The position numbers and the translations under genes are program-made. The notes beneath the pieces were generated by a model that searched no databases, was not told where the DNA came from, and worked only from the letters and a program-made list of their open reading frames with translations. Below are positions 2,921 to 26,836 of a stretch of DNA of 33,644 bases, in pieces. Origin of the DNA: a virus (lineage: Duplodnaviria; Caudoviricetes); the IMG/VR virus record IMGVR_UViG_3300005512_000168, positions 1 to 33,644 of that record. One strand, 5' to 3'. How positions within the stretch are numbered: position 1 is the stretch's first letter; the number at the start of each line of letters is the position of its first letter.

Positions 2921-3478
2921 ATGTGCAGTAACACCGAACTGAAAGATATAATCACAGAGCAAGGAAAGGCGTTCAGTGCTCACGTAGAGGACGAGATGGA
3001 GGGGCAGAAAGAGATTCGACAGATTCTGCACGACATCAACGAGCGCCAGAATGAGCTATTCCACCATCACCGCCAGCGTGCCGAGTGGGCTGCTCGCATT
3101 GATAAGCGACTGAGTAACGGGGTGCAATCCTTCCAGCAACTTGCGATCAATGACCAAAAGGCCGATGATCGTATTGATTCTGTAATTCGAAAGGTCTCAG
3201 AGTTAGGCTGTGCGGTAGACAAAAACGCCGATGGGATTATGAAAAGCAGGGCAGATATTAAGAGGCTTACCGCCGCTATTGAGTCTCTCGCAAAAGGTCT
3301 TGCTCCGATACTGGAGGTCATGCACAAGTTCACCGCTGCCATGCCATTCTTTGAGATGATCGGCAAGGCAACCACATGGGTAATTGAGAAGATCGCCCCG
3401 ATACTCGCAGTTATTGCAGCTATATGGGCCTACGTGAGCGAACCGTGGCGCTACTTCTCTGACTTCTTGAAGCACTAA
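2921..3478 (+). CDS. Coiled-coil protein with C-terminal membrane anchor (holin/spanin-like?)
   Basis: Helical body followed by hydrophobic IAPILAVIAAIWAYV. Last gene of the late arm. Confidence 0.5.
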   Translation: MCSNTELKDIITEQGKAFSAHVEDEMEGQKEIRQILHDINERQNELFHHHRQRAEWAARIDKRLSNGVQSFQQLAINDQKADDRIDSVIRKVSELGCAVDKNADGIMKSRADIKRLTAAIESLAKGLAPILEVMHKFTAAMPFFEMIGKATTWVIEKIAPILAVIAAIWAYVSEPWRYFSDFLKH

Positions 3479-3599
3479 TGATTGCCTTTTGTCAGTTTTC
3501 AGAAACCATGTGGATATGGATTTGCGCAGTATAAACATGGGCAAGGCAGCAGAATTACTACTGAAGCTAGCGGCGTGGTGATCTGGTCACTGATCCCAT

Positions 3600-3647
3600 A
3601 AAAAACACCCCTCATGGTGCGCAGATCCAACGGGATGCGTGAGGGGT
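3600..3647 (-). terminator. Intrinsic terminator between the convergent arms
   Basis: Stem ACCCCTCAT (3607-3615) / GTGAGGGGT (3639-3647), with an A-tract on its left that reads as a U-tract on the minus strand. Confidence 0.55.
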
Positions 3648-3689
3648 TAGGGAGGAGTTGGAATAACTCTAGGAAGTGGGGTTAGTGTA

Positions 3690-4037
3690 TCATCTATCAT
3701 CACCATCGCCAAGTAGTGTACCTCTACGTTGTCGGTCAGCCAGTTTGTCGATATTGGTCTTGGCTACATCAGACAGCTTGAACCCTAGCTGTGTGGCTAT
3801 CTCTGCAACGCTCCAAAGGCAATCACCCAGTTCCTTTTTAGCTGCAGCAACATCTATCTGCTTATTGTCACCCCTTAACTTTACCTTTGTAAACTGACTG
3901 GTTAGCTCTCCAGCCTCTTCATGCAGCAGCATCATTGGGTACATATCATTCCTGTAGTTTGCTGTCTTGTGCGCCAGATATTGATATTCATCAAGTTCCA
4001 TTGATTCTTCCTTAGTCAGTAATGAGTCCTGGGTCAT
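3690..4037 (-). CDS. mazG: MazG-like NTP pyrophosphohydrolase
   Basis: EEAGE...KELGDCLW motifs and C-terminal NIDKLADRQRRG..GDGDDR. AGGAG RBS before ATG 4037. Confidence 0.85.
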   Translation of the reverse strand: MTQDSLLTKEESMELDEYQYLAHKTANYRNDMYPMMLLHEEAGELTSQFTKVKLRGDNKQIDVAAAKKELGDCLWSVAEIATQLGFKLSDVAKTNIDKLADRQRRGTLLGDGDDR

Positions 4038-4319
4038 TGCTTTTTCTCCTTGGTTGAGTTGGCAGGTGTTTGGAGTGATTATTTTCGTCCTCACAATACT
4101 GGCATCGTGATTGGTCTAAATGCCGCCAGCCACACCATCGGCACCCGTCATATTTAGGGTCAGATTCGTGAAGCGGCTCATTCATCCTCTTTCTTCTCCT
4201 CTGCTTGATTGGGTCTCGGCATTTTCACCTCGAAATAACGCATCCCATTCGCTATACATTGCTGATAGCTTTGATCGGAGCACGACCATCGGCAGTTATC
4301 GCAGCAAGGCGTTGTAGTT

Positions 4320-4898
4320 CTATCCATTCCTACTTCCTCCAAACACGTTAGGGCATTCAATCTGTAACTGTCGCTCAATCTCTAGCGCCACTTGTCTGAT
4401 CTCCCACTGTGCAGCCTTGTCGGTACGCAGTGCGATAAAGTCAAGCCAACTCTGGAGATTGCCTGTCACCACAAGTTCTGTAGTAGCGGCATTAGGTAGC
4501 ACCATACGGGCATCTTCTTTCTTCATGCCCGCATCAATCAGCATGCCATAGTAATCTCTGGCGGAATCCATAGCCTCTGCGAAAATGGACTCGACGTGAT
4601 TATTGTCAGCAATGTCGATGTATGCAAAGTTCTTCTCGCTGCAATATCTCTGAGATCTTTGTAGGAAATCCAAGTGTTTCGATCTAACAAATTGATGACT
4701 ACAGGCTCTACTAATACCCTCCACCCTGAAGGTAGCGATAGCGTGTCTGAGTGTAGACAGGTGCTTAACCCTCATCAGATGCTTGATACGCTTCTCATTC
4801 TTCATCGGGTCGGTTGTATCGCTGTCATAGCAGACTGCGCTGTACCTGCTGATGAGTTCTTCAGCGTTTGGGGTTATGTGTTCTAGTGTGATTTTCAT
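4320..4898 (-). CDS. thyX: Flavin-dependent thymidylate synthase
   Basis: H.S.L.H, ISRACSHQFVR, SQRY, EDARMVLP and AQWEIR motifs. Confidence 0.9.
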   Translation of the reverse strand: MKITLEHITPNAEELISRYSAVCYDSDTTDPMKNEKRIKHLMRVKHLSTLRHAIATFRVEGISRACSHQFVRSKHLDFLQRSQRYCSEKNFAYIDIADNNHVESIFAEAMDSARDYYGMLIDAGMKKEDARMVLPNAATTELVVTGNLQSWLDFIALRTDKAAQWEIRQVALEIERQLQIECPNVFGGSRNG

Positions 4899-5143
4899 TC
4901 TTTCAACCCCTTTGCTATCAGGTTCCGCCTCTCCGTAAGCTGCTTCACCATTGCGTGAAGATGGGCTGCGTCTGTTGGTCCGATCAGTCTAGCCATCTCA
5001 CGCTCTATGCAGTAAGGGCATTTCCAACCACCTCTGGCTGGATGTTCATCGCACTGCTGGCAGGTTGAGAATGTAGAATGGTATGCTGGGTATTGGTACA
5101 GTAGGTTGCTATATAGCCTATCGAACTGGTCTACTTTAGACAT
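4895..5143 (-). CDS. Hypothetical Zn-finger protein
   Basis: Two CxxC pairs; 4-bp overlap with the thyX start. Confidence 0.55.
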   Translation of the reverse strand: MSKVDQFDRLYSNLLYQYPAYHSTFSTCQQCDEHPARGGWKCPYCIEREMARLIGPTDAAHLHAMVKQLTERRNLIAKGLKE

Positions 5144-5194
5144 TGTTCTTCTCCCTACCTTTGTTGCTCCAGTTTTTGCAAGTCGCGCAGGTCA

Positions 5195-5839
5195 TCACTC
5201 TATCCTCCCCCATATTTTTCCTGTTTTTATGTCTGTAATTGTGGATGGGCTTACTTCAAATTCTCTAGCTATATCCGCTGCCTTAGCACCTTCGTTGATT
5301 GCTAATCGGATTGTGGTTACGTCTAATATATCGAGCCTTGATACTCTTCTGTTTCTCGACTGCTCTAAGTTGGTTGCCCATCCGCAATTGCTTGGCTCAT
5401 AATTTCCGTTTGGATCTATCCTGTCGATTGTGAGTTCAGCTTTATATCCATTGGTAAAAGCCCACCATCTAAATACTGTAAAGTCTAGCCATTCATCACA
5501 AACGACAATACCTCTGCCGCCGTAATTGTTGTATCCATTGGTATTTGGGTCATAGCATCGACGCTTCATGTTTACCCATTTTTTGTAGATGTCGGTCCCT
5601 GTGCCGTGATGCGTGGCATTGGCTTTTCCTGACTTTGATGCTGCTGCTTTTTGTAAGCACCCGCATGATTTTGTGCTCCCTGATCTCAGGCTGCTGGTTT
5701 CTATGGCTTTTGCTTTACCGCAATCGCACAAGCAATACCATCGAGTTCTTCTTGGCTTTATAGCTCTCGCCTGACTGATGACTTCTAGTAGTCCGTATCT
5801 GTGGGCGGTTAGGTTGAGCTTGTTGTGTGCTTTACGCAT
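5195..5839 (-). CDS. HNH homing endonuclease-like protein with C-terminal HTH
   Basis: WxCxCDCG, SCGC, YGGRGI.VC..W, TIDRIDPNGNYEPSNC motifs and a terminal HTH (IAREFEVSPSTI). Confidence 0.85.
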   Translation of the reverse strand: MRKAHNKLNLTAHRYGLLEVISQARAIKPRRTRWYCLCDCGKAKAIETSSLRSGSTKSCGCLQKAAASKSGKANATHHGTGTDIYKKWVNMKRRCYDPNTNGYNNYGGRGIVVCDEWLDFTVFRWWAFTNGYKAELTIDRIDPNGNYEPSNCGWATNLEQSRNRRVSRLDILDVTTIRLAINEGAKAADIAREFEVSPSTITDIKTGKIWGRIE

Positions 5840-5877
5840 AATTTACCCCTTACAGTAAATGACCTTAGAGAAAAGTG

Positions 5878-5926
5878 TGTGCCAGCCAACTAAGGTATTG
5901 GTGTTCAGCCGCTAAGCCTAGGCACA
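5878..5926 (-). ncRNA. C4-antisense-like cloverleaf RNA upstream of the HNH gene
   Basis: Minus strand: closing stem TGTGCC(T)AG/CTGGCACA with two inner hairpins. Loop ACCTTAG is complementary to downstream CTAAGGT and to TAAGG in the RBS. Confidence 0.6.
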
Positions 5927-5943
5927 GATTCAATATACATGGC

Positions 5944-6180
5944 CTACCCGTCAGTTGCAATATTCATCAGCACAGGTGTGCACATTTTTAACTCAATATC
6001 CCCCTCTCCGTTGGTTTTGGTGCGCTTGCCTGTTAATAGACTTAGATCCTCATCTCTGATGCACGTATCTTGAGATAAATATGGAACGCTGCGTTCAATG
6101 GTTTTTATTGTGTGTTGGCTAAAGTCTCCTTGTGGCACCGTCCAAATTGATAATGCCCATCCAATTACTATCGTTTTCAT
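5944..6180 (-). CDS. Hypothetical protein
   Basis: AGGAG RBS and ATG; hydrophobic N-terminus. Confidence 0.5.
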   Translation of the reverse strand: MKTIVIGWALSIWTVPQGDFSQHTIKTIERSVPYLSQDTCIRDEDLSLLTGKRTKTNGEGDIELKMCTPVLMNIATDG

Positions 6181-6249
6181 CTCTGATTCTCCTAAAATTA
6201 AATACCCCTTTCACACGCATCCAAGGCGGGGCGAACCTCTGATTCGACA

Positions 6250-6441
6250 CTACTTTTTTGCCTTGCTTTTATCGCTTAGCTCAAGGGTCGGGGTCGGCCC
6301 TATATTGCCGTGGCAAGAGTCTGTGCGTGCTCCAGACTTGGATTCTCTATCAATAATCTTTTGCTGATCCTCCGAGACTTTCTTATTGCTCAGAAAGGAG
6401 GGGTTCCAAGACTTCCACGGGTGAGCTTTGTTATTTCTCAT
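6250..6441 (-). CDS. Hypothetical protein (63 aa)
   Basis: ATG 6441 overlaps the upstream stop (ATGA). Confidence 0.4.
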   Translation of the reverse strand: MRNNKAHPWKSWNPSFLSNKKVSEDQQKIIDRESKSGARTDSCHGNIGPTPTLELSDKSKAKK

Positions 6442-6608
6442 GCTTTCTCTGCCTTTGCTAAATATTCTGACAAGCAATCTAACGCTATCTCACAACGCCT
6501 CATCCGGTCATACCAGTAATCAACTCTGCGTTGTTCATACATCCGCCGTGCGTGGATAAGCTGCGCTAGTAGGCTTCGCTTGAAACCTGAAATAGTTGGA
6601 GGGTTCAC
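6438..6608 (-). CDS. Hypothetical protein (56 aa)
   Basis: Hand-translated MNPPTISGFKRSLL...; GTGA overlap upstream and ATGA overlap downstream. Confidence 0.5.
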   Translation of the reverse strand: MNPPTISGFKRSLLAQLIHARRMYEQRRVDYWYDRMRRCEIALDCLSEYLAKAEKA

Positions 6609-6994
6609 GACCACCTCCGTTGGCAGATCATGTGGACATCAAAAGAGTAGGGTCGATCAGTCATAATGGACCTCTTCTCATTCTTGATTATCCGGAGCCT
6701 TGCTCGCTCCTCTTTGCGCCTCTCGCTCAGTAGCTTGTTTCTCTGCTTCTTTTCTGCGACATATTTGGCAGGAACTTTCCTCTCTGGAAGCAGGCGGTAC
6801 TCTATTAGGCTGTCAGTTTTACGTTTCTCTGCGAATCCCTGTATCACAGCCTTATATAGAAAGTTGCCGAGCCTCCCTTGATATTGTGGGAGTTCAATAT
6901 TCTGGCGCTTTATCTCTCTCCTTACATCTTTGACGGTTGCCCAATCACCTATAGAATCGAGCACATCTCTTATTGTTTCTGCGATTGACTGCAT
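6605..6994 (-). CDS. Basic hypothetical protein, possibly winged-helix DNA-binding
   Basis: AAGGAG RBS; helical N-terminus and Arg/Lys-rich C-terminus. Confidence 0.55.
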   Translation of the reverse strand: MQSIAETIRDVLDSIGDWATVKDVRREIKRQNIELPQYQGRLGNFLYKAVIQGFAEKRKTDSLIEYRLLPERKVPAKYVAEKKQRNKLLSERRKEERARLRIIKNEKRSIMTDRPYSFDVHMICQRRWS

Positions 6995-7082
6995 TATTCT
7001 CTCCTTAATATAGAGTGCCTGCTGTGCGCTAACGAAGGCAGGCGCTCCGCTCTATATCCTGACGCACTCAGGTGGAGGACGG

Positions 7083-7388
7083 TCAAAATGGTATACTGCT
7101 ATCCAGATCGTCATGTTGTTGCGGTGCTGCTGGCGCTTGCTGTGCTGGTGCTTGCTGGTTGCTGCGATCAAAGACACTAGCAATCAGGTTAGTGCGCACC
7201 TCTTTTCCTTGCTTGTGGTTCATCATGTTTTGAAGTGCAAGGCACCCTGCTAGATCAACGGTTGGTTCGAGCAGCATATATTCGCCATTCTGCCCTTCCA
7301 TGATTGTTCCGATCTTGATGTATTTAGTTTTTTCCTCTCCCTGCTTGTTTAAGTATTTTTCTGTGGCAATTGATACATCTTTAGGCAT
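7083..7388 (-). CDS. Single-stranded DNA-binding-like protein
   Basis: Q/A/P-rich linker and acidic tip DDLDSSIPF; lies in an operon with ERF and the exonuclease. Confidence 0.7.
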   Translation of the reverse strand: MPKDVSIATEKYLNKQGEEKTKYIKIGTIMEGQNGEYMLLEPTVDLAGCLALQNMMNHKQGKEVRTNLIASVFDRSNQQAPAQQAPAAPQQHDDLDSSIPF

Positions 7389-8056
7389 TACTTTGCTCCT
7401 GTCATTTTTTGAAAAATTTCATAGGTCAGTCTACAATCTTCTTTGCAATATTCGGCGCATTCACTGTCCGTCATATCGAGAGAAGCGGCACCGTCACCAT
7501 TCTTGGTTTCGCCCAATAGAGCAAAGGCCAAATCATCCAGTTTGACGTAACCAGCGGCACCATAGACAAACTGCCCTGACCACTCTATTTGAGTATCAAA
7601 CACATCAGTAGAGTATCTGGTGTAGTAGCAACCCATCCAGTTAGGCATTTTCACGCCAAGAACAATAGCTCTCTTTCTGATGAAGGTTAGATCAAACGCT
7701 TTCACGTTATGCCCTACAATAGTCGGCACATAAGGCAATCCGTCTGCATCCGTCTTGTGCAGTGCATTCATTATGCTGAAGAACCGCTCCAGAATGTCTT
7801 TCTCGGCCCCTGTAAGGACTTCAGGCTCTCCATCATTAAACTGATAGCCGATCATCTTGATAGAGCCGTACAGAGGCTCTAAGGCGGTTTTACGCTGTGC
7901 CTCAACCTTCTGGTCGTTACCCTTCTCTCTCCACCACTTCTCAATAGCATCCTCGCTCTTGTAGTTGGCTGGTGGTGTTACCTTACTACACACTCGCTCA
8001 ATCACTGCTGGATCGTGTGAGTAGTCACTTTCGATGTCGATTGTGATAATTGTCAT
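7388..8056 (-). CDS. DEDD 3'-5' exonuclease (PolB-exo/RNase H-like)
   Basis: ExoI DIES, ExoII GHNVKAFD and ExoIII YCKED. ATG 8056 overlaps the erf stop. Confidence 0.85.
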   Translation of the reverse strand: MTIITIDIESDYSHDPAVIERVCSKVTPPANYKSEDAIEKWWREKGNDQKVEAQRKTALEPLYGSIKMIGYQFNDGEPEVLTGAEKDILERFFSIMNALHKTDADGLPYVPTIVGHNVKAFDLTFIRKRAIVLGVKMPNWMGCYYTRYSTDVFDTQIEWSGQFVYGAAGYVKLDDLAFALLGETKNGDGAASLDMTDSECAEYCKEDCRLTYEIFQKMTGAK

Positions 8057-9695: not shown

Positions 9696-9723
9696 ATTAT
9701 ACGGGTTAATTTTAGGATTGCAA
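9696..9723 (-). promoter_or_regulatory. Leftward sigma70-like promoter
   Basis: Minus strand TTGCAA-N16-TATAAT in the AT-rich divergence region. Confidence 0.65.
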
Positions 9724-9744
9724 CAAGTTTTTTTAACTTTTTTT

Positions 9745-9772
9745 TAGCAAAGCGGTTAAAAGCGTGTATAAT
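9745..9772 (+). promoter_or_regulatory. Rightward sigma70-like promoter
   Basis: TAGCAA-N16-TATAAT upstream of the Arc-like gene. Confidence 0.55.
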
Positions 9773-10077: not shown

Positions 10078-10278
10078 ATGTATTCAGATTGCTTTTTAAC
10101 CAATGATTATGATGGCATGTGCTGCGTCACAGGCTGTGATAGTCAGGTTAAGTTATCTTTTGATGTGAACGGTGTAATCCATTGTTTTGTGATGGATGAA
10201 GTGGAGGCGAAAGACTTGTTTGGTTGCCTTAATGGTGCCTTGAATTATTTGAGCGGTGAGCACAATGAGGTGGTTTAA
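10078..10278 (+). CDS. Hypothetical protein (66 aa)
   Basis: Strong AAAGGAG RBS before ATG 10078. Confidence 0.6.
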   Translation: MYSDCFLTNDYDGMCCVTGCDSQVKLSFDVNGVIHCFVMDEVEAKDLFGCLNGALNYLSGEHNEVV

Positions 10279-10861
10279 GCATGACTCAGACGCGCATCGT
10301 GACGCGAAGTTAAAAAAGCTGATGATGTCGTATGGCCTAGAGGGGTATGGGCTTTATTGGTACTGTCTGGAGTTGATAACTGGAGATGTGAACGAGAAAA
10401 AGTACACGTTTTCGCTTGAGCATGATGCAGATGTGATTGCTTTTGATACTGGATTATCACCAGAAAAAGCAATGGACATAATGAAGAAAATGGTTGATCT
10501 TGAGTTGTTTGAATCAACGGATGGAGTGATTAGCTGCTTAAAGCTGGCCAAAAGACTGGATCAGTCTATGACATCCAACCCGATAATGAGGAAAATCATT
10601 GATGGAGTCAAAAAACAAGGAGTTATTTCTAATAGTCATGACGCGGTCATGATTCAGTCATGTGAAAGTCATGATGCAGTCATGCAAGAAGAGACTAGAT
10701 TAGATAAGATTAGATTAGATAAACAGCATATAGCTGAAAACTCTCCTGCTTCCGACAAGTCGAAAGCTATCCCGTACCAGAAGATCATAGATCTATATCA
10801 TTCACTAACAATAACTGAAATAGGGATTAGTTATGGCGCGAAAATATGTAGAGGTAGATGA
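10265..10861 (+). CDS. Replication initiator-like protein 1 (Lin1244/DUF4373-like N-terminal wHTH), probably C-terminally truncated
   Basis: N-terminus MRWFKHDSDAHRDAKL..L...YGLEGYGLYW..LE, internal iteron-like repeats and RLDKIRLD linker. Ends shortly after IPYQKIIDLYH. Confidence 0.7.
   Translation: MRWFKHDSDAHRDAKLKKLMMSYGLEGYGLYWYCLELITGDVNEKKYTFSLEHDADVIAFDTGLSPEKAMDIMKKMVDLELFESTDGVISCLKLAKRLDQSMTSNPIMRKIIDGVKKQGVISNSHDAVMIQSCESHDAVMQEETRLDKIRLDKQHIAENSPASDKSKAIPYQKIIDLYHSLTITEIGISYGAKICRGR
10635..10684 (+). repeat. Iteron-like array: five GTCATG at exact 11-bp spacing
   Basis: GTCATG at 10635, 10646, 10657, 10668 and 10679, followed by AT-rich TAGAT/AAGAT repeats. Confidence 0.75.
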
Positions 10862-11070: not shown

Positions 11071-11739
11071 ATGCACTACTACCAATTTAATATTGGCGAC
11101 TACAAGAGCCACACCGACCACCTAGATCCTTTGGAAGATATAGCTTACCGGAGGATGATAGATTGGTTGTATCTTCACGAAAAACCGCTCCCAGATGATG
11201 TTAATCAGATAGCCAGATTGATTAACATGCGTTCGCATAGCGATTGTATAGCGATTGTAATGCAGGAGTTCTTCGAGACTACCTCAGAGGGTCTTATCAA
11301 TAAGCGCGTTTCACTAGAGATTGATGCTTTTCACAGTAAAGGTGAGAAGGCTAGAGCTTCTGCAAAGGCTAGATGGGATAAAGTTAAAGCATTGAAGGGC
11401 AAGGGTAATGATGCGAACGCATTGCGAGCGCAATCCGAAGGCAATGCTAACCATAAACCAATAACCAATAACCATAAACCAATAACCAAAGAAAAGAAGG
11501 GGGGTAAACCCCGATTCTCGCCACCAACGCTAGAAGAGGTTAAGCAAGAGGTTTCAGAAAAACTCTACCGTGTGGACCCTGAAGCCTTCTTTTTTCACTA
11601 CGAGGGCAACGGCTGGATGGTGGGCAAAAACAAAATGAAGAATTGGAGGATGGCTCTTGCAAGCTGGAACAAGCGAGAGGGTCAGAACCAAAAGCAGAAA
11701 GGCACTGGATTCAACCGCCTGATGGAGTTGGCGCAATGA
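11071..11739 (+). CDS. Replication initiator-like protein 2 (YdaU/DUF1376 family)
   Basis: MHYYQFNIGDY...T.HL..LE..AYRR, NHKPITNNHKPIT linker and C-terminal FSPPTLEEV...F..HYE.NGW.VGKNKMKNW domain. Confidence 0.85.
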   Translation: MHYYQFNIGDYKSHTDHLDPLEDIAYRRMIDWLYLHEKPLPDDVNQIARLINMRSHSDCIAIVMQEFFETTSEGLINKRVSLEIDAFHSKGEKARASAKARWDKVKALKGKGNDANALRAQSEGNANHKPITNNHKPITKEKKGGKPRFSPPTLEEVKQEVSEKLYRVDPEAFFFHYEGNGWMVGKNKMKNWRMALASWNKREGQNQKQKGTGFNRLMELAQ

Positions 11740-12113
11740 TTACAGAGAGAGATATTAAACGGGCATCCAGATTGATTTTGCGCTTGCAGGTTAGATTTCC
11801 GAATTCATTTAACAATTTCAAAGATAACGATCCAATGCTCGACTTGATGGCAGAAGAATGGGCTAGGGATCTGCAAAAGTATTCAGATGATGATCTGTTG
11901 CGAGGTTTGGAGTCTGTGCGAACTAGCGGCACTACATTTTGCCCTTCGCTTCCAGAATTCATCGCTCTTTGCAGGCCAGCGCGATCTCATGCGGCTCACC
12001 GTCTGGATACTCTACCGCCACCAGTGAAGGTGGTTAGCGATGAGGAAGCGGCAAAGAATGTTCGCAAGTTGAAACAAATTATGTCTGGAGCTGTTACTGA
12101 TGGATTGGAATAA
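11736..12113 (+). CDS. Helicase loader-like protein (lambda P / G39P position)
   Basis: ATGA overlap with the initiator; W..DL and FCPSLPEF..LC motifs. Confidence 0.65.
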   Translation: MITERDIKRASRLILRLQVRFPNSFNNFKDNDPMLDLMAEEWARDLQKYSDDDLLRGLESVRTSGTTFCPSLPEFIALCRPARSHAAHRLDTLPPPVKVVSDEEAAKNVRKLKQIMSGAVTDGLE

Positions 12114-12315
12114 ATTGTGTGAAGAGTTAAGTGATGATCTTAGTATGATGAACTTTGCTTATGAGGAAAAGCAGAGGTTGGATGCTGAGTATCTGGAAAT
12201 GCTGAAGGGTGTTGCTGCTGGCAAAAAAGCGCCAGATTTTCCGCAAAAGATAACTATGGAGGAAATTCTCGCAGAGGCTGGGGTTTCTGCTAAGCGATAC
12301 GATGGAGGTGTATAG
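12100..12315 (+). CDS. Hypothetical protein
   Basis: GGAG RBS; overlaps the upstream gene. Confidence 0.55.
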   Translation: MDWNKLCEELSDDLSMMNFAYEEKQRLDAEYLEMLKGVAAGKKAPDFPQKITMEEILAEAGVSAKRYDGGV

Positions 12316-12488
12316 TGCCTTGGCCTACAGGTGATCGCCATCATAAGGCGCGGCTATCAGATCAGGACGTAGAGCTAATGCGTCAATTGAGAGAGGGCGG
12401 CATGACCTACAGAGAGATAGCGGAGAAGTTTGAGTGCTCTCTGTGGACTGCGCGATCAATCGTCACATACGCGTCAAGATATCGCTAA
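12315..12488 (+). CDS. Small HTH DNA-binding protein (57 aa)
   Basis: GTG start with GGAGG RBS; GDRHHKARLSDQDVELMRQLREGGMTYREIAEKFECS. Confidence 0.75.
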   Translation: MPWPTGDRHHKARLSDQDVELMRQLREGGMTYREIAEKFECSLWTARSIVTYASRYR

Positions 12489-12510
12489 AAAAGCATTACG
12501 GAAGAATATA

Positions 12511-12741
12511 ATGGGAAAAATAAAAATACCATATCAAGAGCTACTTGATAACGGATTTACAAAACACGGGAACTGGTACATCAGAGGCAATGTCTCTATA
12601 AATCTATTGGGCCAGTCATTATTGCATGGTGGCAATCCGTCGTTTTATATCGACATGGATGAATTTGAGCCACATGGAGATATAACATTGAAGGACGTAA
12701 TGGCTTTGTCTGAAGTTATGGCGAAGCTAACGGGATATTAG
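12511..12741 (+). CDS. Hypothetical protein (76 aa) abutting the first attC-like site
   Basis: ATG 12511; stop lies 2 nt before the GCCCAAC core. Confidence 0.5.
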   Translation: MGKIKIPYQELLDNGFTKHGNWYIRGNVSINLLGQSLLHGGNPSFYIDMDEFEPHGDITLKDVMALSEVMAKLTGY

Positions 12742-12743
12742 AA

Positions 12744-12807
12744 GCCCAACGACCATGTTTTGCGGCGTGTAGCGCAGCGGAACGTCCGAAACAACTACTT
12801 GTTATAT
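12744..12807 (-). other. attC-like recombination site 1 (64 bp)
   Basis: Minus strand ATATAAC-AAGTA-GTTGTTT-CGG-A-CGT-TCCGCTGCGCTAC-ACG-CCG-CAAAAC-ATGGTC-GTTGGGC: R'', 5-nt spacer, L'' with extra bases, L', 6-nt spacer, R'. Confidence 0.85.
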
Positions 12808-12829
12808 TGCGATTTGAACGGTTGAGAAT

Positions 12830-13585
12830 ATGGAAAAAGTAACGATAGAAAAAGCTGACCTTTATTGTGGCGACTGCCTGGATGTTTTCCCGTTAGTTGG
12901 AGGCGTTGACCTAATTTTAACCGACCCACCATATTCATCAGGCGGGGCATATAGATCAGACAGGACTCAAACAACAGACAAGAAATACCAACATACAGCA
13001 GAAACCACTCGCAGTTATGCGACTTTTAGCGGCGACAACAGAGATCAGCGTAGCTTTGAAAAATGGTGCGCGGAATGGATGCGCGGATGCCTTGATATAA
13101 CAAATGAGGGTGGAGTTATTGGTGCATTCATAGATTGGAGGAATATTGCTTCGGTAATTGATGCAATGCAGGTTGCTGGATGGGTTTACCGTGGGGTCGT
13201 GCCTTGGCACAAAGGAGAAGATCAACGACCGCGGAAAGGGTGGTTTAGGGCTAATGTTGAATATGTAGTTCTTGGTTCGGCTGGGCCGATGCTGACAGGG
13301 CATAAGGCTGACGGATTATGCGCGGATGGGGTTGTATATTGCAGGATCAACGGAAACGAGAAATTACACCAGACAGGAAAGCCGATAGATTTGATGACTT
13401 ATTTGATGCAGGTGCGCGGAGATTGGGATGTTGTTTTTGATCCTTTTATGGGTAGCGGCACAACTGGAGTAGCAGCGTTGAATTTAGGAAAAAAATTTAT
13501 CGGCGTTGAAAAGGAAAAACATTATTTTGATGTTGCCTGCTCGCGCATCAAGGCGGAACGCGCTCAAGGTAGATTAGCAATATAA
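12830..13585 (+). CDS. DNA N6-adenine/N4-cytosine methyltransferase, beta class (cassette-borne)
   Basis: DPPY precedes HQTGKP and DPFMGSGTTG; stop TAA lies within the TAAC core. Confidence 0.9.
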   Translation: MEKVTIEKADLYCGDCLDVFPLVGGVDLILTDPPYSSGGAYRSDRTQTTDKKYQHTAETTRSYATFSGDNRDQRSFEKWCAEWMRGCLDITNEGGVIGAFIDWRNIASVIDAMQVAGWVYRGVVPWHKGEDQRPRKGWFRANVEYVVLGSAGPMLTGHKADGLCADGVVYCRINGNEKLHQTGKPIDLMTYLMQVRGDWDVVFDPFMGSGTTGVAALNLGKKFIGVEKEKHYFDVACSRIKAERAQGRLAI

Positions 13586-13666
13586 CGACCTGATAAGCGG
13601 GCCGCAACGGGCATTACAGAAAACACGGCGGAGCATCACGGCTCCGTCTTTATTAACTTGTTAGAT
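13580..13666 (-). other. attC-like recombination site 2 (87 bp)
   Basis: Plus strand ATATAAC...ATAAGCGGGCCG / CGGC(T)CCG(T)CTT(T)AT...GTTAGAT; unpaired bases all lie in the right arm. Confidence 0.85.
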
Positions 13667-13677
13667 TGAGGGTTATT

Positions 13678-13878
13678 ATGGAAACGAAACAGGTAGAGAT
13701 TGGTGCAACATGTCATTTGACTAGCACAGTTTATAGCGGCGGTAGCATGGATGTTTATCTGGACTACATAGAGCATTCAGCGGACCACTGGCACAGCGAC
13801 ACAGAAACCAGTCTGGATATCGACAAGGATAAGGCGGTTGAGATAATTAACTTTCTCAAAGATGCCTTTTCAATCTAA
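13678..13878 (+). CDS. Cassette-borne hypothetical protein (66 aa)
   Basis: GAGG RBS, ATG 13678; stop TAA lies within ATCTAAC. Confidence 0.7.
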   Translation: METKQVEIGATCHLTSTVYSGGSMDVYLDYIEHSADHWHSDTETSLDIDKDKAVEIINFLKDAFSI

Positions 13879-13958
13879 CGCCTGAGCTGAGCCGCCAGCC
13901 ACGGATTGCCTTTGGGAAAAGGCAGCTTATTCTGGTCGGCTCTAGCGTATTGTTATAA
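13873..13958 (-). other. attC-like recombination site 3 (86 bp)
   Basis: Plus strand ATCTAAC-GCCTGA-GCTGAGCCGCCAG...CTGG(T)CGGCTC(T)AGC-GTATT-GTTATAA, with inner hairpin TGCCTTT/AAAGGCA. Confidence 0.9.
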
Positions 13959-13983
13959 TGCAGGGCTTTATTGGAGGTAGATT

Positions 13984-14163
13984 TTGAAAATAGGAAAAGT
14001 TAGCATGATGGTAGAGGTTGACGGAAAGGCTTGCGTGGTGGTGCTGCCAAAAGAAAGAATGCTGATGTTGGTGGACTTGGCAGCGAGTTTAAGCGATTCA
14101 GGAAAGCTCCCAGTTAAAAAACTTGGCAGCGAGTATAAATTTGAAACTATAGAAGCATTATAA
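13984..14163 (+). CDS. Cassette-borne hypothetical protein (59 aa)
   Basis: GGAGG RBS, TTG start, MKIGKVSMMVEVDGKACVVVLP...; stop TAA lies within TTATAAC. Below the ORF-track cutoff. Confidence 0.7.
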   Translation: MKIGKVSMMVEVDGKACVVVLPKERMLMLVDLAASLSDSGKLPVKKLGSEYKFETIEAL

Positions 14164-14176
14164 CAGTGTGCTATAC
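14158..14176 (-). other. Candidate attI/attG-like cassette entry site
   Basis: Minus strand GTATAGC-ACACT-G/TTATAA: degenerate L box, 5-nt spacer, R core, and no hairpin arm. Confidence 0.5.
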
Positions 14177-14414
14177 GGAATTGAAGCCTGAACCACTACA
14201 ACTTGACCTTGCCTTTCTCAAAGAATGCACCAAGCACAGCAGCTACGACGAAAAGGCACAGATCTGGAAGGATTGGAAAAAGAATTTTGAGGAAGGTATG
14301 GAGGCAGCGCAGAAACAGGGGTTGCCAGATTATAAGATTCAAAATGCTGGCAGATTCAGAGCAAACTCCCTCTTACGGGAGCGGATAGCACTTAGGAAGG
14401 AGTTGAGAGGGTGA
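14166..14414 (+). CDS. Hypothetical protein (start uncertain)
   Basis: Open frame overlapping the ninB start; no clear RBS. Confidence 0.45.
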   Translation: MCYTELKPEPLQLDLAFLKECTKHSSYDEKAQIWKDWKKNFEEGMEAAQKQGLPDYKIQNAGRFRANSLLRERIALRKELRG

Positions 14415-14794
14415 TGCGCTTTATAATAAACAGCAAGCAGGTCAAGCGTAATTGTCTCGATGCGGTCATGGAAATACGAGGTGATGACCAGATGGAGGTT
14501 GTTATCCAGAAGCACAAGAGGCGAAAGACGGACGAGCAGAGATCTTTCTGGCACGTCCTGTTATCAATTCTAGGTGAAGAAACAGGTTATACGCTAGGTG
14601 AGGTTAAATATCTGGTTAAAGCCGCTGTAATCGGCTCTGAAACGGTTTCAGTGGGTAATATGACTGTAGAGGTGGTTCCAAGTAGCGAAAAGCAGGATAG
14701 AGAGCGTTATTCTGAACTGATTGAGGCTACATATCGGATTGCAGCAGAGGCAGGGATTGAGCTGCCGCCAGCGAGGTTTATTGGTGATGGCTAA
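14414..14794 (+). CDS. ninB: NinB/Orf-like recombination protein
   Basis: VVIQKHKRRKTDEQRSFWH, and SELIE...AAE.GI near the C-terminus; lies upstream of ninG. Confidence 0.7.
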   Translation: MRFIINSKQVKRNCLDAVMEIRGDDQMEVVIQKHKRRKTDEQRSFWHVLLSILGEETGYTLGEVKYLVKAAVIGSETVSVGNMTVEVVPSSEKQDRERYSELIEATYRIAAEAGIELPPARFIGDG

Positions 14795-15359
14795 ACAGAA
14801 GAAATGCTCCCAATGCGGCAAAGGCTTTCAGGCTAGTAATTCCATGCAAAAAGTCTGCTCCCTTGATTGTGCGCTGAAGGTTGGTAGAAAAAAGGCAGCA
14901 CAGGAAAAGCAGAAGGCTCATAGAGCGGCTAAACGCAAGCTGCTGGATGAGGATAGAGGGCACTGGCTGAAGGCTGCACAAAATGCGTTTAATCAATTTG
15001 TGAGAGAGCGAGATAAGTTAGAGCCTTGCATCTCTTGCGGTCGATTCCATGATGGTCAGTACCATGCAGGTCACTACCGTACTGTTGGCGCTCATCCAGA
15101 GTTGAGATTTCACCCGTTTAACAACAACAAGCAGTGCGCTCCTTGCAATAACCATAAGTCAGGGGATATTGTGAACTACCGCATCAATCTGAAGGATAAG
15201 ATTGGGGAGGCTAACTTAGAATGGTTGGAGGGGTATCACGAACCTTGCAAGTGGACGATAGAAGATCTGAAAGAGATCAAGGCGTATTACATGGAGCAAT
15301 TGAAGATTTTGAAGAGTAAGGACAATTTTGAACGATGGACGGAGGGATTGAATGGCTGA
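14787..15359 (+). CDS. ninG: NinG/Rap-like endonuclease
   Basis: AQNAFNQFVRERD..PCISCG...HAGHYRTVGAHPELRF...QCAPCNNHKSG motifs. Confidence 0.92.
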   Translation: MAKQKKCSQCGKGFQASNSMQKVCSLDCALKVGRKKAAQEKQKAHRAAKRKLLDEDRGHWLKAAQNAFNQFVRERDKLEPCISCGRFHDGQYHAGHYRTVGAHPELRFHPFNNNKQCAPCNNHKSGDIVNYRINLKDKIGEANLEWLEGYHEPCKWTIEDLKEIKAYYMEQLKILKSKDNFERWTEGLNG

Positions 15360-15555
15360 TGATGCAGATAACGCAATGACTTACATTGAGCAGGAGCGTG
15401 AGATGTGTATTGCCAGAGCTAGAAAGACGTTACCAAAAGTAACCAAGGGTATTTGTCAGAATTGCGGAGAAATAAGCACTACTCTGAGAAATATGACCTG
15501 CACAGACTGTAGAGCGGAGCTGGAGCAGTTGGCAGGTAGATTTGCAGGTTATTGA
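15352..15555 (+). CDS. TraR/DksA-type C4 zinc-finger protein
   Basis: MADDADNA N-terminus, CQNCGE and CTDC. Confidence 0.75.
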   Translation: MADDADNAMTYIEQEREMCIARARKTLPKVTKGICQNCGEISTTLRNMTCTDCRAELEQLAGRFAGY

Positions 15556-15579
15556 CTCTGCATAAAAAATAGGCATAAT
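15552..15579 (+). promoter_or_regulatory. Putative promoter for the packaging module
   Basis: TTGACT-N16-CATAAT. Confidence 0.5.
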
Positions 15580-15611
15580 TCACCTATCTTGTTGGTAACA
15601 GGGAAAATATC

Positions 15612-16874
15612 ATGTCCGGTGGACTAGAGCAGGTATCAGTCAGTGACTTGGTGCCCTACGTTAATAACGCCAAGACACATCCAGAGGAGCAGGTCTTAAA
15701 AATTGCGTCCTCTATCAAAGAGTTTGGCTTTAATGCTCCTATTTTGGTTGATGGCAATAATGGGATCATTGCAGGTCACGGTAGACTGCAAGCAGCAAAG
15801 AAGCTGAAGTTATCAACAGTCCCAGTAGTACGGCTGGATCATTTATCCGAAGCGCAGAAGAAAGCCTATATACTTGCAGACAATCGCTTGGGTGAAGTTG
15901 GCGGTACAGATTGGGATATGGATCTGGTCTCTCTTGAGCTTCAAGACTTGCAGGAGATGGATTTCGACATTGATCTCACTGGCTTTGAGATTGATGACAT
16001 TATCCCTGAGGAGGTCGAAGGGCTGACCGATGAGGACGATGTACCGGACGCACCAGAGGAACCAATCACCAAAGAGGGTGATGTTTGGATACTTGGGCGA
16101 CATCGGCTGATGTGTGGCGACAGCACCAGTATTGACGCGGTGGAGAAACTGATGGATGGGCGGAAGTCGGACATGGTGTTTACCGACCCCCCTTATAATA
16201 TTGGAAGTGAAAACAAGGGTGTTGCTCAAGACGTATCAAAAGCACATAAAGACCTTATGGCGGCTGATTGGGATAAAGATTTTCAAATTGAGGTGCCTCT
16301 AAATTGTGCGCTTGCTGTTATGGCGAAGGATTGCGCGGTTTATGTCTGCACGTTACATCATTTGGCTGGAAGGATTTGGGCGTGGATGAAGGAATGGTCA
16401 GATCATCACTCGTTCTGCGTGTGGAGTAAGCCAGACCCGATGCCTTCGCTGACAAAGCGACACTGGACATGGGATACAGAATTAGTCCCGTATGCAACGC
16501 GCGGAAAACACATTTTCAACGCAGAAAATGGACAGCACTCGCCAAGCACTTGGCGTATCAACAGGCAACAAGGCGGAGAAAAAACTGGCCACCCGACACA
16601 AAAGCCGGTAGCCGTTCCTCAGCATGCAATTGAGAAAAGTAGCCGCAACAACCAAATAATTTTAGACCTATTCGGCGGCTCAGGCTCAACGCTTATCGCC
16701 TGCGAAAAGACAAACCGTGACTGCCGCATGATGGAACTCGACCCAAAATACTGCGATGTAATCATCAAGCGATGGCAGGACTACACAGGCAATCAAGCAG
16801 TACATGAAGCTACTGGTGCTCTGTACGACAATATCCAGAATGTTGATATAATTCAGGAGGTTGCTAATGGCTAA
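15612..16874 (+). CDS. ParB-like N-terminal domain fused to a beta-class DNA methyltransferase
   Basis: PYVNNAKTH..FGF..PIL..IIAGHGR..ADNR, then DPPY, HPTQKP and DLFGGSGST. Confidence 0.92.
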   Translation: MSGGLEQVSVSDLVPYVNNAKTHPEEQVLKIASSIKEFGFNAPILVDGNNGIIAGHGRLQAAKKLKLSTVPVVRLDHLSEAQKKAYILADNRLGEVGGTDWDMDLVSLELQDLQEMDFDIDLTGFEIDDIIPEEVEGLTDEDDVPDAPEEPITKEGDVWILGRHRLMCGDSTSIDAVEKLMDGRKSDMVFTDPPYNIGSENKGVAQDVSKAHKDLMAADWDKDFQIEVPLNCALAVMAKDCAVYVCTLHHLAGRIWAWMKEWSDHHSFCVWSKPDPMPSLTKRHWTWDTELVPYATRGKHIFNAENGQHSPSTWRINRQQGGEKTGHPTQKPVAVPQHAIEKSSRNNQIILDLFGGSGSTLIACEKTNRDCRMMELDPKYCDVIIKRWQDYTGNQAVHEATGALYDNIQNVDIIQEVANG

Positions 16875-22959: not shown

Positions 22960-22995
22960 ATAGTGGTATCTCCAATAAAAAGGGGATACCACTAT
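22960..22995 (+). promoter_or_regulatory. Hairpin sequestering the RBS and start codon of the HNH gene
   Basis: ATAGTGGTATCTCC / GGGGATACCACTAT, a 14-bp stem with one G-U pair. Confidence 0.7.
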
Positions 22996-23611
22996 GATAA
23001 TCAAGAATGAAAATGTTTTTAGATCGTTACGCCATAGATATAATCACATGATTAGAAGGTGTTATGATGAGAACAATCGGAGTTATCATTCGTATGGCGC
23101 TAGAGGGATTAGGGTTTGCCAGAGATGGAAAGATAACTTTTGGAATTATGTGAATGATTTGCCAAAAGGTCACTCTATTGGTTTAGAGTTAGACAGGATT
23201 GATAACAATGGTGATTATGAGCCAGATAATGTTAGATGGGCGACAAGGGCACAGCAGAGCAGAAATCGAAGATCAAACAAGTTTATAGAATTCGATGGCA
23301 AAACGCAGTGCGTTGCAGATTGGGCAAAAGAGATAGGGATTAGCCAAAGTTCATTAGATGAGAGATTGCAGCGAGGGTGGTCATTAAAGGATGCCTTAAC
23401 ACAGCCGAAAGGTGCAAGGCTTCACAATAGATGGGATGGGCATATAAAGAAGCCTGAGAAGCCCAAAAGGAACACGAAACTATATGATTACAAGAAGCAA
23501 CGCCTTACAATGAAACAGTTATCAGAAATGTCTGGAGTGCCGGTCAAGCTACTAAGAAAAAGAATAGATGAGCGTGGCTGGACTGTTGAAAGAGCTATGG
23601 AGACACCATGA
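22994..23611 (+). CDS. HNH homing endonuclease-like protein
   Basis: M.RRCY, YGARGIRVC.RW and LDRIDNNGDYEPDNVRWAT..QSRNRR; two C-terminal R..RGW repeats. Confidence 0.88.
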   Translation: MIIKNENVFRSLRHRYNHMIRRCYDENNRSYHSYGARGIRVCQRWKDNFWNYVNDLPKGHSIGLELDRIDNNGDYEPDNVRWATRAQQSRNRRSNKFIEFDGKTQCVADWAKEIGISQSSLDERLQRGWSLKDALTQPKGARLHNRWDGHIKKPEKPKRNTKLYDYKKQRLTMKQLSEMSGVPVKLLRKRIDERGWTVERAMETP

Positions 23612-25935: not shown

Positions 25936-26382
25936 ATGGCTGCTCAAACTTCAGCAGGTACTACTATTGCAATCACCGCTACAGGGCCATCTACGTATGA
26001 TGACAACGTAACTACGGGCTTTCCTTCTCTGACATTTACGACAGTGGGTGAGGTCGTGGATGCTGGCGAATACGGGCGCACTTATAACCTCGTTACCTAT
26101 AACCCGCTTGATTCTCGCAAGACAGTCAAGAAGAAGGGATCTTATAACGATGGCACAATGACGCTTCAGGTAGCGCGTGATCCAGACGATGCAGGACAGG
26201 CGATTCTAGTAACCGCTTTGGATAGTGATAACGACTACTATTTTGAGGTTACATTGCAGGATGGAACAGTACAGTATTTTGCTGCACAGGTTCTCTCCTA
26301 TACTACAGGCGTGGGGTCTGCTGACCAGATTACTAATGCCACCATTCAGATTGAGTTGACTAACTCAATCATTGAAGTTTAA
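25936..26382 (+). CDS. Major tail tube protein, copy 1
   Basis: GE..D.GEYGR...LVT..P...R...K.KGS.N.G motif; AGGAG RBS. Confidence 0.8.
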   Translation: MAAQTSAGTTIAITATGPSTYDDNVTTGFPSLTFTTVGEVVDAGEYGRTYNLVTYNPLDSRKTVKKKGSYNDGTMTLQVARDPDDAGQAILVTALDSDNDYYFEVTLQDGTVQYFAAQVLSYTTGVGSADQITNATIQIELTNSIIEV

Positions 26383-26398: not shown

Positions 26399-26836
26399 AT
26401 GGCTGCTCAAACTTCCGCGGGCACTACGATTGAGATTAGTGCCTCCAATCCAGCCACATATAACGCGGCTGGTTTTGGTGCTCTCTCTTACTCAGTAGTT
26501 GGTGAAATTGTTGACGCTGGCGAGTATGGACGTACTTACAATCTGGTAACTCATAACCCACTGGATTCTCGTAAAACAGTAAAGAAGAAAGGCTCCTACA
26601 ATGATGGGACGATGACTTTACAGGTAGCACGCGATCCCTCTGATGCTGGTCAAGCTATTTTGGTGACTGCTTTGGATAGCGATTCAGATCATTCGTTTAA
26701 GGTTACTCTGCAAGACGGTACGATTCAGTATTTCGCTGCACAGGTTCTCTCTTATACGACTGGCGTGGGTAGTGCCGATCAGATTACAAACGCAACCATT
26801 CAGATTGAATTGACGGATGCAATTGTAGAGGTTTAA
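26399..26836 (+). CDS. Major tail tube protein, copy 2
   Basis: About 83% identical to copy 1 by hand alignment; AGGAGG RBS. Confidence 0.8.
   Translation: MAAQTSAGTTIEISASNPATYNAAGFGALSYSVVGEIVDAGEYGRTYNLVTHNPLDSRKTVKKKGSYNDGTMTLQVARDPSDAGQAILVTALDSDSDHSFKVTLQDGTIQYFAAQVLSYTTGVGSADQITNATIQIELTDAIVEV

Follow-up and report, generated by a model that had tools for sequence, protein, structure and literature searches.

Does a phage carry integron cassettes whose genes run against the polarity of their own attC sites and, if it does, what moves these cassettes and what expresses them? The question is raised by a whole virus record of 33,644 bases with direct terminal repeats (CheckV completeness estimate, 49%), referred to here as the window, which derives from a marine phage. 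The integron rule that a gene lies on the top strand of its attC site, with the site behind it, is taken as a guarantee of expression. A sequence-only reading of this DNA proposed that the rule is reversed in an array of three cassettes, in which the top strand of every attC site is minus, every ORF lies on plus and each site precedes its gene, and that such units form a phage-adapted class.

Genome setting of the array

The phage has a lambdoid-like layout. The leftward arm carries ERF, exonuclease, ThyX and MazG genes, while the rightward arm carries replication initiator-like genes, a P-like loader, NinB, NinG, terminase and structural genes; the cassette array lies between the P-like gene and ninB. 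No match to the integron integrase family TIGR02249 or the tyrosine recombinase family PF00589 was found anywhere in the phage record. Two fixed ORFs on the plus strand, neither assigned to a family, bound the array: upstream, a 76-aa ORF (12511..12741) that stops 3 nt 5' of it and is present within the contigs of relatives, and downstream, an 82-aa ORF (14166..14414) that overlaps the attI-like site described below and is followed by ninB and ninG.

A candidate rightward early promoter at 9744..9772 on plus, identified by its consensus match (10/12), stands back to back with a leftward promoter-like site at 9723. In the region as a whole, promoter-like sites are not enriched (13 found, 10.0 +/- 3.3 expected); one with a TG, also 10/12, lies inside the 66-aa gene of the array (13820-13847, +) and belongs to a class not above chance regionally. 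On the minus strand, a consensus scan from 12540 to 15700 detected no sigma-70-like site and hence no Pc-like promoter facing the array.

Several other features of the genome deserve mention. Two different replication-initiator-like genes lie in tandem on plus (10256-10861, PF14297; 11068-11739, PF07120), each with short internal repeats (10634-10722 and 11412-11489). An Rfam int-alpA RNA is found at 5863-5928 (-) in this integrase-less phage, at 43 bits against a gathering score of 35.8; it is the sole Rfam match in the window, with none over the attC sites. The tail region holds paralogous neighbours of 145-148 aa (25936-26382 and 26399-26836, +), possibly a duplicated tail tube gene, and outside the array there are two HNH endonuclease genes (5195-5839, -; 22994-23611, +) and a second DNA methyltransferase, fused to ParB-N (15612-16874, +).

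Anatomy and polarity of the attC sites

All three attC sites have minus as the top strand and plus as the bottom strand: site 1 at 12744..12807 (28.0 bits), with its AAC crossover at 12748-12750 and unpaired C and T in the right arm; site 2 at 13580..13666 (24.0 bits), with three unpaired bases (T, T, T); and site 3 at 13873..13958 (47.9 bits), with unpaired T and T and a layout of the aadA/cmlA type. Their lengths of 64, 87 and 86 nt fall inside the 57-141 nt range for attC. The RYYYAAC...GTTRRRY cores retain AAC and GTT in all three, with some outer core positions off consensus, and the stem of site 1 has one mismatch. Spacers measure 6 nt on the left and 5 nt on the right in sites 1 and 3, just as first described, and 5 nt on either side in site 2. 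The array had been taken to extend over 12744..13958, which is correct for the three sites but stops short on the right, as the third cassette runs to 14163 and a half-site begins at 14158.

A pairing model, which asks on which strand the arm 3' of AAC contains the unpaired bases, gave scores of 10.5, 10.75 and 12.5 for sites 1 to 3 with plus as the bottom strand and 2.0, 1.0 and 2.0 with minus, in agreement with the original placement of the unpaired bases of all three sites in the right arm on plus. Among 30 Markov-resampled controls of 33.6 kb, no site scored at least 10 and two sites scored at least 9. This polarity caller reproduced the direction of intI at 116/116 chromosomal sites and 71/72 class 1-like sites. 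Our own covariance model, trained on 60 of 106 distinct bacterial attC top strands in an orientation anchored on intI, matched all three sites with exact boundaries and on minus only (the next-best match in the window reached 9.5 bits). The strand of covariance matches had been proposed as a check, and its outcome supports minus as the canonical orientation and plus as the recombinogenic bottom strand. The covariance and pairing tests are not fully independent because the same caller selected and oriented the training sites. Reversed polarity, with the top strand of the three sites on minus and all genes on plus, is confirmed.

Site 3 was thought to resemble the reverse complement of an aadA-type attC; indeed, its plus strand is laid out like the bottom strand of attCaadA7 in the available part of Table S3 of PMC9892861. 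A 22-nt match of its left arm to the cmlA5 attC (95.5%, E = 9) is a lead only, and blastn of the site against plasmids returned only matches of 22-36 nt at E 3-9. The first unpaired base of sites 1 to 3 (C, T and T) is atypical. This base is usually G according to the available text of PMC5027507, and in our sets it is G in 163/191 viral and 114/160 bacterial sites and T in 3 viral and 8 bacterial sites; 46/160 bacterial sites have a base other than G. The fold z-score of site 3 is -2.9 on plus and -2.5 on minus, the folds of sites 1 and 2 do not surpass those of shuffled sequences (-0.27 and -1.29), and the minimum-energy fold predicted for site 1 is not the recombinogenic hairpin. The atypical first base and the weak folding of sites 1 and 2 speak against full activity. 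Terminator-like hairpins with T-runs occur on plus inside sites 2 and 3 (13627-13648 and 13906-13925), with 7 such motifs found and 4.6 +/- 2.5 expected, which does not exceed chance for the region.

The polarity might nevertheless be conventional, with plus as the top strand, each attC after its gene and the last attC truncated. Such an arrangement is compatible with stops that lie in RYYTAAC cores, as they do in 12/29 class 1-like cassettes, and with folding energies that differ by only 0.8-1.9 kcal/mol between the strands, which makes them a poor discriminator of polarity; yet it puts the unpaired bases in the wrong arm and lacks a plus-strand covariance match at any site. The natural alleles described below bear on it further.

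Cassette units and their cargo

The three units make up 1414 bp (836+293+285; 12750-14163), each in the order attC, ribosome-binding site, gene, TAA. Cassette 1 (12750..13585, +; 836 bp) consists of the attC bottom strand followed by the gene for a 251-aa N6/N4 DNA methyltransferase (12830-13585, +; PF01555, E 4e-28; phrog_67), with whose TAA the unit closes. Cassette 2 (13586..13878, +; 293 bp) has an attC, an RBS-like GAGGG and a 66-aa ORF (13678-13878), and cassette 3 (13879..14163, +; 285 bp) an attC, a GGAGG ribosome-binding site and a 59-aa ORF (13984-14163). As had been noted, every ORF is on plus with its TAA in a core, namely that of the next site (13583-85, 13876-78 and 14161-63). 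The three ORFs score 26.6, 16.3 and 10.4 on plus, versus 1.0, -0.1 and none for the best ORFs on minus. All three genes break the classical cassette rule of a gene on the top strand with attC downstream.

The units behave as units at their ends, which are complementary at 10/10 positions in all three: over 10 nt, the right core of a site is exactly complementary to the left core that follows. This exact complement is found nowhere else in the window; similar cores cross-match at 7-9/10, and the two cores of site 1 match each other at 5/10.

The 66-aa protein belongs to a small family seen in phage contigs (4 homologues at 50-69%), and homologues of its gene occur in 9 viral loci without a detected attC. 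An Atlas search with this protein (ORF2) returned viral clusters at 0.87 and DUF3276 clusters at TM 0.76, the latter below the bar for naming a family. The 59-aa ORF has 6 homologues at 71-83%, and a 66% homologue of its gene lies in another phage, at one viral locus without a detected attC; the Atlas search with this protein (ORF3) gave no match. For the methyltransferase, one locus without a detected attC holds a 37% homologue. Protein searches with the flanking genes and the methyltransferase yielded no informative viral relatives, and when the array was compared with cultured phages by blastn, short methyltransferase motifs were found among 40 of 90 matches listed.

An attI-like half-site at the right-hand end

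The array ends at a fourth core (14158-14164, AAC at 14162-14164), at which no hairpin or fold was found. It forms part of a fixed docking half-site on minus (14158..14195), with a 5-6-nt spacer and an L-box-like motif, and stands where attI belongs when an integron is read along the bottom strand. On a profile built from 18 bacterial attI sites alone, the 14158 site ranks first of the 592 YAAC positions in the window, with a modest 7.5 bits (the next has 5.3), and 12/16 of its bases are identical to those of the attI of locus L272. A regular expression for the L-box is matched by 14/42 viral terminal sites, 9/17 bacterial sites and 21/854 background positions; the match of the window's own site is not counted because the pattern was widened after this site had been seen. 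A terminal site of this type closes many other viral arrays. When viral contigs were searched for exact copies of the docking motif, they yielded this phage again (L236) and one chance match within a gene (L237). The 14158 site is regarded as a candidate phage attI.

It could also be that the right-hand site is a chance attG or a decayed attC, at which host IntI drops ordinary cassettes and selection keeps the rare reversed ones that are expressed. The available text of bioRxiv 10.1101/2022.09.11.507474 describes insertion of cassettes by IntI at many genomic GWT sites (attG), where nearby promoters can express them, and both the modest attI match and the limited share of viral terminal sites with the L-box pattern would be in keeping with this idea. 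Several independent alleles, however, use one and the same AAC. Moreover, a conventional cassette could be expressed via an oppositely facing target, and therefore selection alone needs no reversal. We consider this explanation quite improbable, and the survey of other cassettes described below speaks against it as well.

Natural alleles of the locus

Part of the region 12000-15000 is contained in 20 of 24 listed sequencing runs, from 11 studies, and alleles were read from the contigs of 5 runs from 5 studies. Contigs cover both array flanks in all 5 runs, none of which holds a contig spanning the whole locus; only joints were used as evidence, and missing cover over the three cassettes was not. 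One contig (run X6) joins 12747 to 14162, skipping 1414 bp with three shared letters, AAC, which is the predicted empty site. This joint is provisional, being read from a single contig with a short side of 27 letters at 85% likeness and possible letters in between. In contigs from two other studies (runs X5 and X8), the space between 12751 and 14161 is filled by 282 other letters. Loose contig ends after 12751 and 12755 start like other attC bottom strands, while loose ends before 14159-14161 consist of other sequence running into the TAA core. Altogether, the natural alleles break at 12748-12751 and at 14159-14164, and relatives diverge from site 1 at 12750-12755; loss of single units among the three cassettes was not seen in the alleles examined.

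In a metagenome contig (L235), 111 bp at 98% identity to the window, from 14160, follow a different reversed attC with a 93-aa gene, and the DNA upstream of these is unrelated. The attI-like half-site is thus retained in relatives behind other cassettes. The same contig also encodes a further methyltransferase (3653-4450), whose stop lies within a TAAC motif, and has a second reversed attC match at 528-593, 4 kb upstream. Three other contigs (L222, L233 and L234) share 99.9% identity with the window and do not count as independent.

The left core of site 1 is where the variable part starts, a position in keeping with an AAC crossover on plus and incompatible with conventional polarity. A conventional array whose last attC is truncated was the case that the sequence-only reading had named against itself, and it fails: relatives lose or replace site 1 from the left core onward, which is unexpected of conventional units, and the fourth core, without a hairpin, is attI-like. 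We find this case hardly credible.

A different possibility is that the reversed units are real but are exchanged today by phage homologous recombination (ERF, NinB, NinG), acting between the flanks and between similar hairpins, or by another tyrosine recombinase, with the hairpins retained mainly as RNA elements of the transcript. ERF, NinB and NinG are encoded by the phage, IntI is absent both from it and from 47/48 array-bearing viral records (among the matches listed), the first unpaired bases are atypical, and hairpin and T-run motifs lie on plus in sites 2 and 3. However, the boundaries fall at AAC with an unrelated variable side, a precision not required for homologous recombination; an attI-like site ends the array, and the reversed sites of phage PH101 are IntI1 substrates. 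Exchange without IntI therefore appears unlikely, and exchange at AAC by IntI remains our preferred reading.

Gene-to-attC polarity in viruses and bacteria

The proposed survey of phage contigs for the relative orientation of attC and ORF was carried out with one bottom-strand attC pattern, which gave at least 128 loci, with full flanks for 80. The viral set comprises 141 distinct cassettes in 51 loci among the matches listed, the IntI-bearing L007 and L055 being left out; the chromosomal set was drawn from 21 of 40 chosen intI regions. Strands were called by a codon-trained per-cassette score and checked against PHROGs. An earlier gene caller was dropped as too noisy in GC-rich loci (among 249 sites, both neighbours were called bottom at 95 and top at 33, the rest being mixed or uncalled).

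Among the matches listed, 124/141 viral cassettes have their gene on the bottom strand, as in the window, with 5 on top, 8 ambiguous and 4 without an ORF. In chromosomal integrons beside intI the corresponding numbers are 1, 79, 2 and 0 (n=82), and in class 1-like integrons 1, 29, 2 and 1 (n=33; 80 loci). The difference between the viral cassettes (among the matches listed) and the chromosomal ones has a Fisher p of 3e-50, a value that ignores kinship and compares unmatched samples, the viral sample being collected with a single attC pattern and the bacterial sample drawn from the surroundings of intI genes. PHROGs matches were obtained for 25/70 sampled bottom-strand ORFs (of 121 eligible) versus 0/47 ORFs on the opposite strand of the same cassettes, and the matched cargo includes five methyltransferases, two Mom-like proteins and one Lar-like protein. 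In these small samples, 0/124 viral cassette proteins have a counterpart among the 108 bacterial ones, against 16/124 and 16/108 with a match inside their own group. These data fit a separate cassette pool that would have been built from phage genes.

The survey bears directly on the attG explanation, in which ordinary bacterial cassettes supply the reversed ones: the sole reversed cassette among the 82 chromosomal ones is a weak 41-aa call, viral and bacterial cassette proteins do not match in these samples, and all three genes of the window have homologues in phages without a detected attC. IntI scored above the cut-off in 1/48 viral array records (among the matches listed) and in 0/11 of those at least 90% complete. 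One viral contig, L223 (G035), carries a complete reversed integron (4116-7792), in which a true IntI (425 bits, cut-off 265) reads in the same direction as the reversed cassettes and a terminal half-site. Its combination of the reversed layout with IntI counts against exchange without that enzyme. One cassette of this contig encodes a D12-class methyltransferase, and the array adjoins serine recombinase, sigma factor and lysis genes.

Conventional polarity also occurs in phages. The complete phage L012 has conventional arrays in both divergent early arms (1091-1426 and 2998-3642), each starting at a near-identical attI-like site. Among the viral bottom-strand ORFs (among the matches listed), 20/124 start inside attC, and none of the three in this window does so. 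In L008, L014, L023, L065 and others, a ribosome-binding site and start codon lie inside the hairpin loop of a long viral attC. Taken together, the covariance matches, the allele breaks at AAC on plus and the survey back the proposal of a phage-specific class of units in which attC precedes the gene.

Relation to known systems

A CALIN, as defined in the available text of PMC4889954 and PMC9892861, is a set of two or more attC sites on one strand, less than 4 kb apart, with no integron integrase. The window array falls under this definition; it thus counts as a CALIN rather than a complete integron, and would operate as an integron platform supplied in trans. Phage CALINs are known from TJE1, PH101, P12002L and ctTUS972 (PMC9892861), and IntI1 recombined 5 of 6 phage CALIN sites assayed, with a preference for the bottom strand (Qi et al. 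2023, PMC9892861). These arrays share with the window the integrase-less attC clusters and, often, N6/N4 methyltransferase cargo. The main text of PMC9892861 calls the TJE1 and PH101 arrays typical and leaves gene-to-attC polarity undiscussed, although the figures or Dryad files may show arrows; unlike the present locus, no phage attI or allelic series for virulent phages is described in its available text.

Read from the sequence records, PH101 and ctTUS972 are reversed like the window, TJE1 is conventional and P12002L is ambiguous, while no convincing attC site was found in jenny 12G5, H188 or 3/49. A strict attC pattern found no site in five published phages, and the PH101 sites, missed by the detector at threshold 8, were located through short motifs. 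The bottom strands that Qi et al. assayed in PH101 coincide with the coding strand of all 12 local CDS, and IntI1 recombined the PH101 attC sites, the bottom strand better than the top (PMC9892861). According to the pairing model, the first unpaired base of PH101 attC2 is T, and this site recombined in the published assay (PMC9892861). The PH101 locus (KR534323, 75919-77987) contains four reversed attC-like sites, of which those at 76529 and 77931 are nearly identical copies.

With classical integrons, as described in the available parts of PMC5027507 and PMC2727003, the window shares R and L boxes, a 5-6-nt spacer, unpaired bases in one arm with T as the last, a bottom-strand crossover at AAC, cassette ends that complement each other and an attI-like site at the end of the array where one is expected. 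It differs in having its genes on the bottom strand, with attC leading the gene, in the absence of intI and of a Pc-like promoter on minus, in a first unpaired base other than G and in phage-type cargo. The attG insertions mentioned above resemble the locus in that IntI acts in trans on an integron-less replicon with expression from resident promoters; they involve scattered GWT motifs and ordinary cassettes, whereas the window has one attI-like site reused across the phage population, with reversed cassettes. The "reverse" integrons of Treponema and others (PMC4889954, available text) likewise have one orientation flipped relative to the textbook integron, but there it is intI that is flipped relative to attC, while here it is the gene relative to its own attC. 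Inversion of whole cassettes through top-strand recombination (outlined in the part of PMC5027507 consulted) was rejected by reasoning, because gene and attC turn together. A search of titles and abstract openings, with subscription papers mostly outside its scope, found no description of reversed phage cassettes.

A model for the phage array

The data presented above have led us to favour, as the likely explanation, an integrase-less phage integron platform in which three reversed cassettes occupy an attI-like site, host IntI likely inserts and excises them at AAC, and an early rightward transcript would express them. Host IntI is inferred as the enzyme because the phage has no recombinase of this kind. 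With the canonical bottom-strand anatomy of these attC sites, host IntI is expected to cut at AAC on plus, going by the available text of PMC5027507 and PMC2727003. Folding and cutting of the plus strand by IntI would follow the canonical bottom-strand reaction, a step for which the PH101 bottom strands recombined by IntI1 provide published support, and new cassettes would enter at the right-hand attI-like site, the newest last, so that the methyltransferase cassette would be the oldest. Expression would come from the rightward early transcript, possibly from the candidate promoter at 9744-9772.

Repeats in the initiator-like genes suggest a replication origin to the left of the array, and under lambda-like replication geometry an origin in this position would make plus the lagging-strand template. 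Such a position raises attC recombination (PMC5371416, available text). Reversal would thereby place the recombinogenic strand on the coding strand, the presumed lagging-strand template, and may favour shuffling. Reversed cassettes would be silent from the host Pc and host cassettes silent in the phage, which would keep the two pools apart. The cargo may serve early infection, for example in evading restriction.

A more general proposal, whose chances we regard as evenly balanced, is that phages possess a mirror-image integron system, in which an attI in the early operon is combined with a large pool of reversed cassettes derived from ordinary phage genes, IntI is borrowed from the host, and the reversal shields this pool from host cassettes, which are often anti-phage.

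Biological implications

The locus adds to the known phage arrays a natural allelic series, in which the same position holds three cassettes, one other insert or, apparently, nothing, together with a candidate phage attI. Because the same genes occur in other phages without attC, reversed-cassette loci could be used to trace the birth of cassettes, and the acquisition of attC by genes, a long-open question, becomes testable. If the reversed class is widespread in phages, integrases serve both sides of the conflict between phage and host, and phages would shuffle methyltransferases and other early genes with the machinery that their hosts use for defence cassettes.
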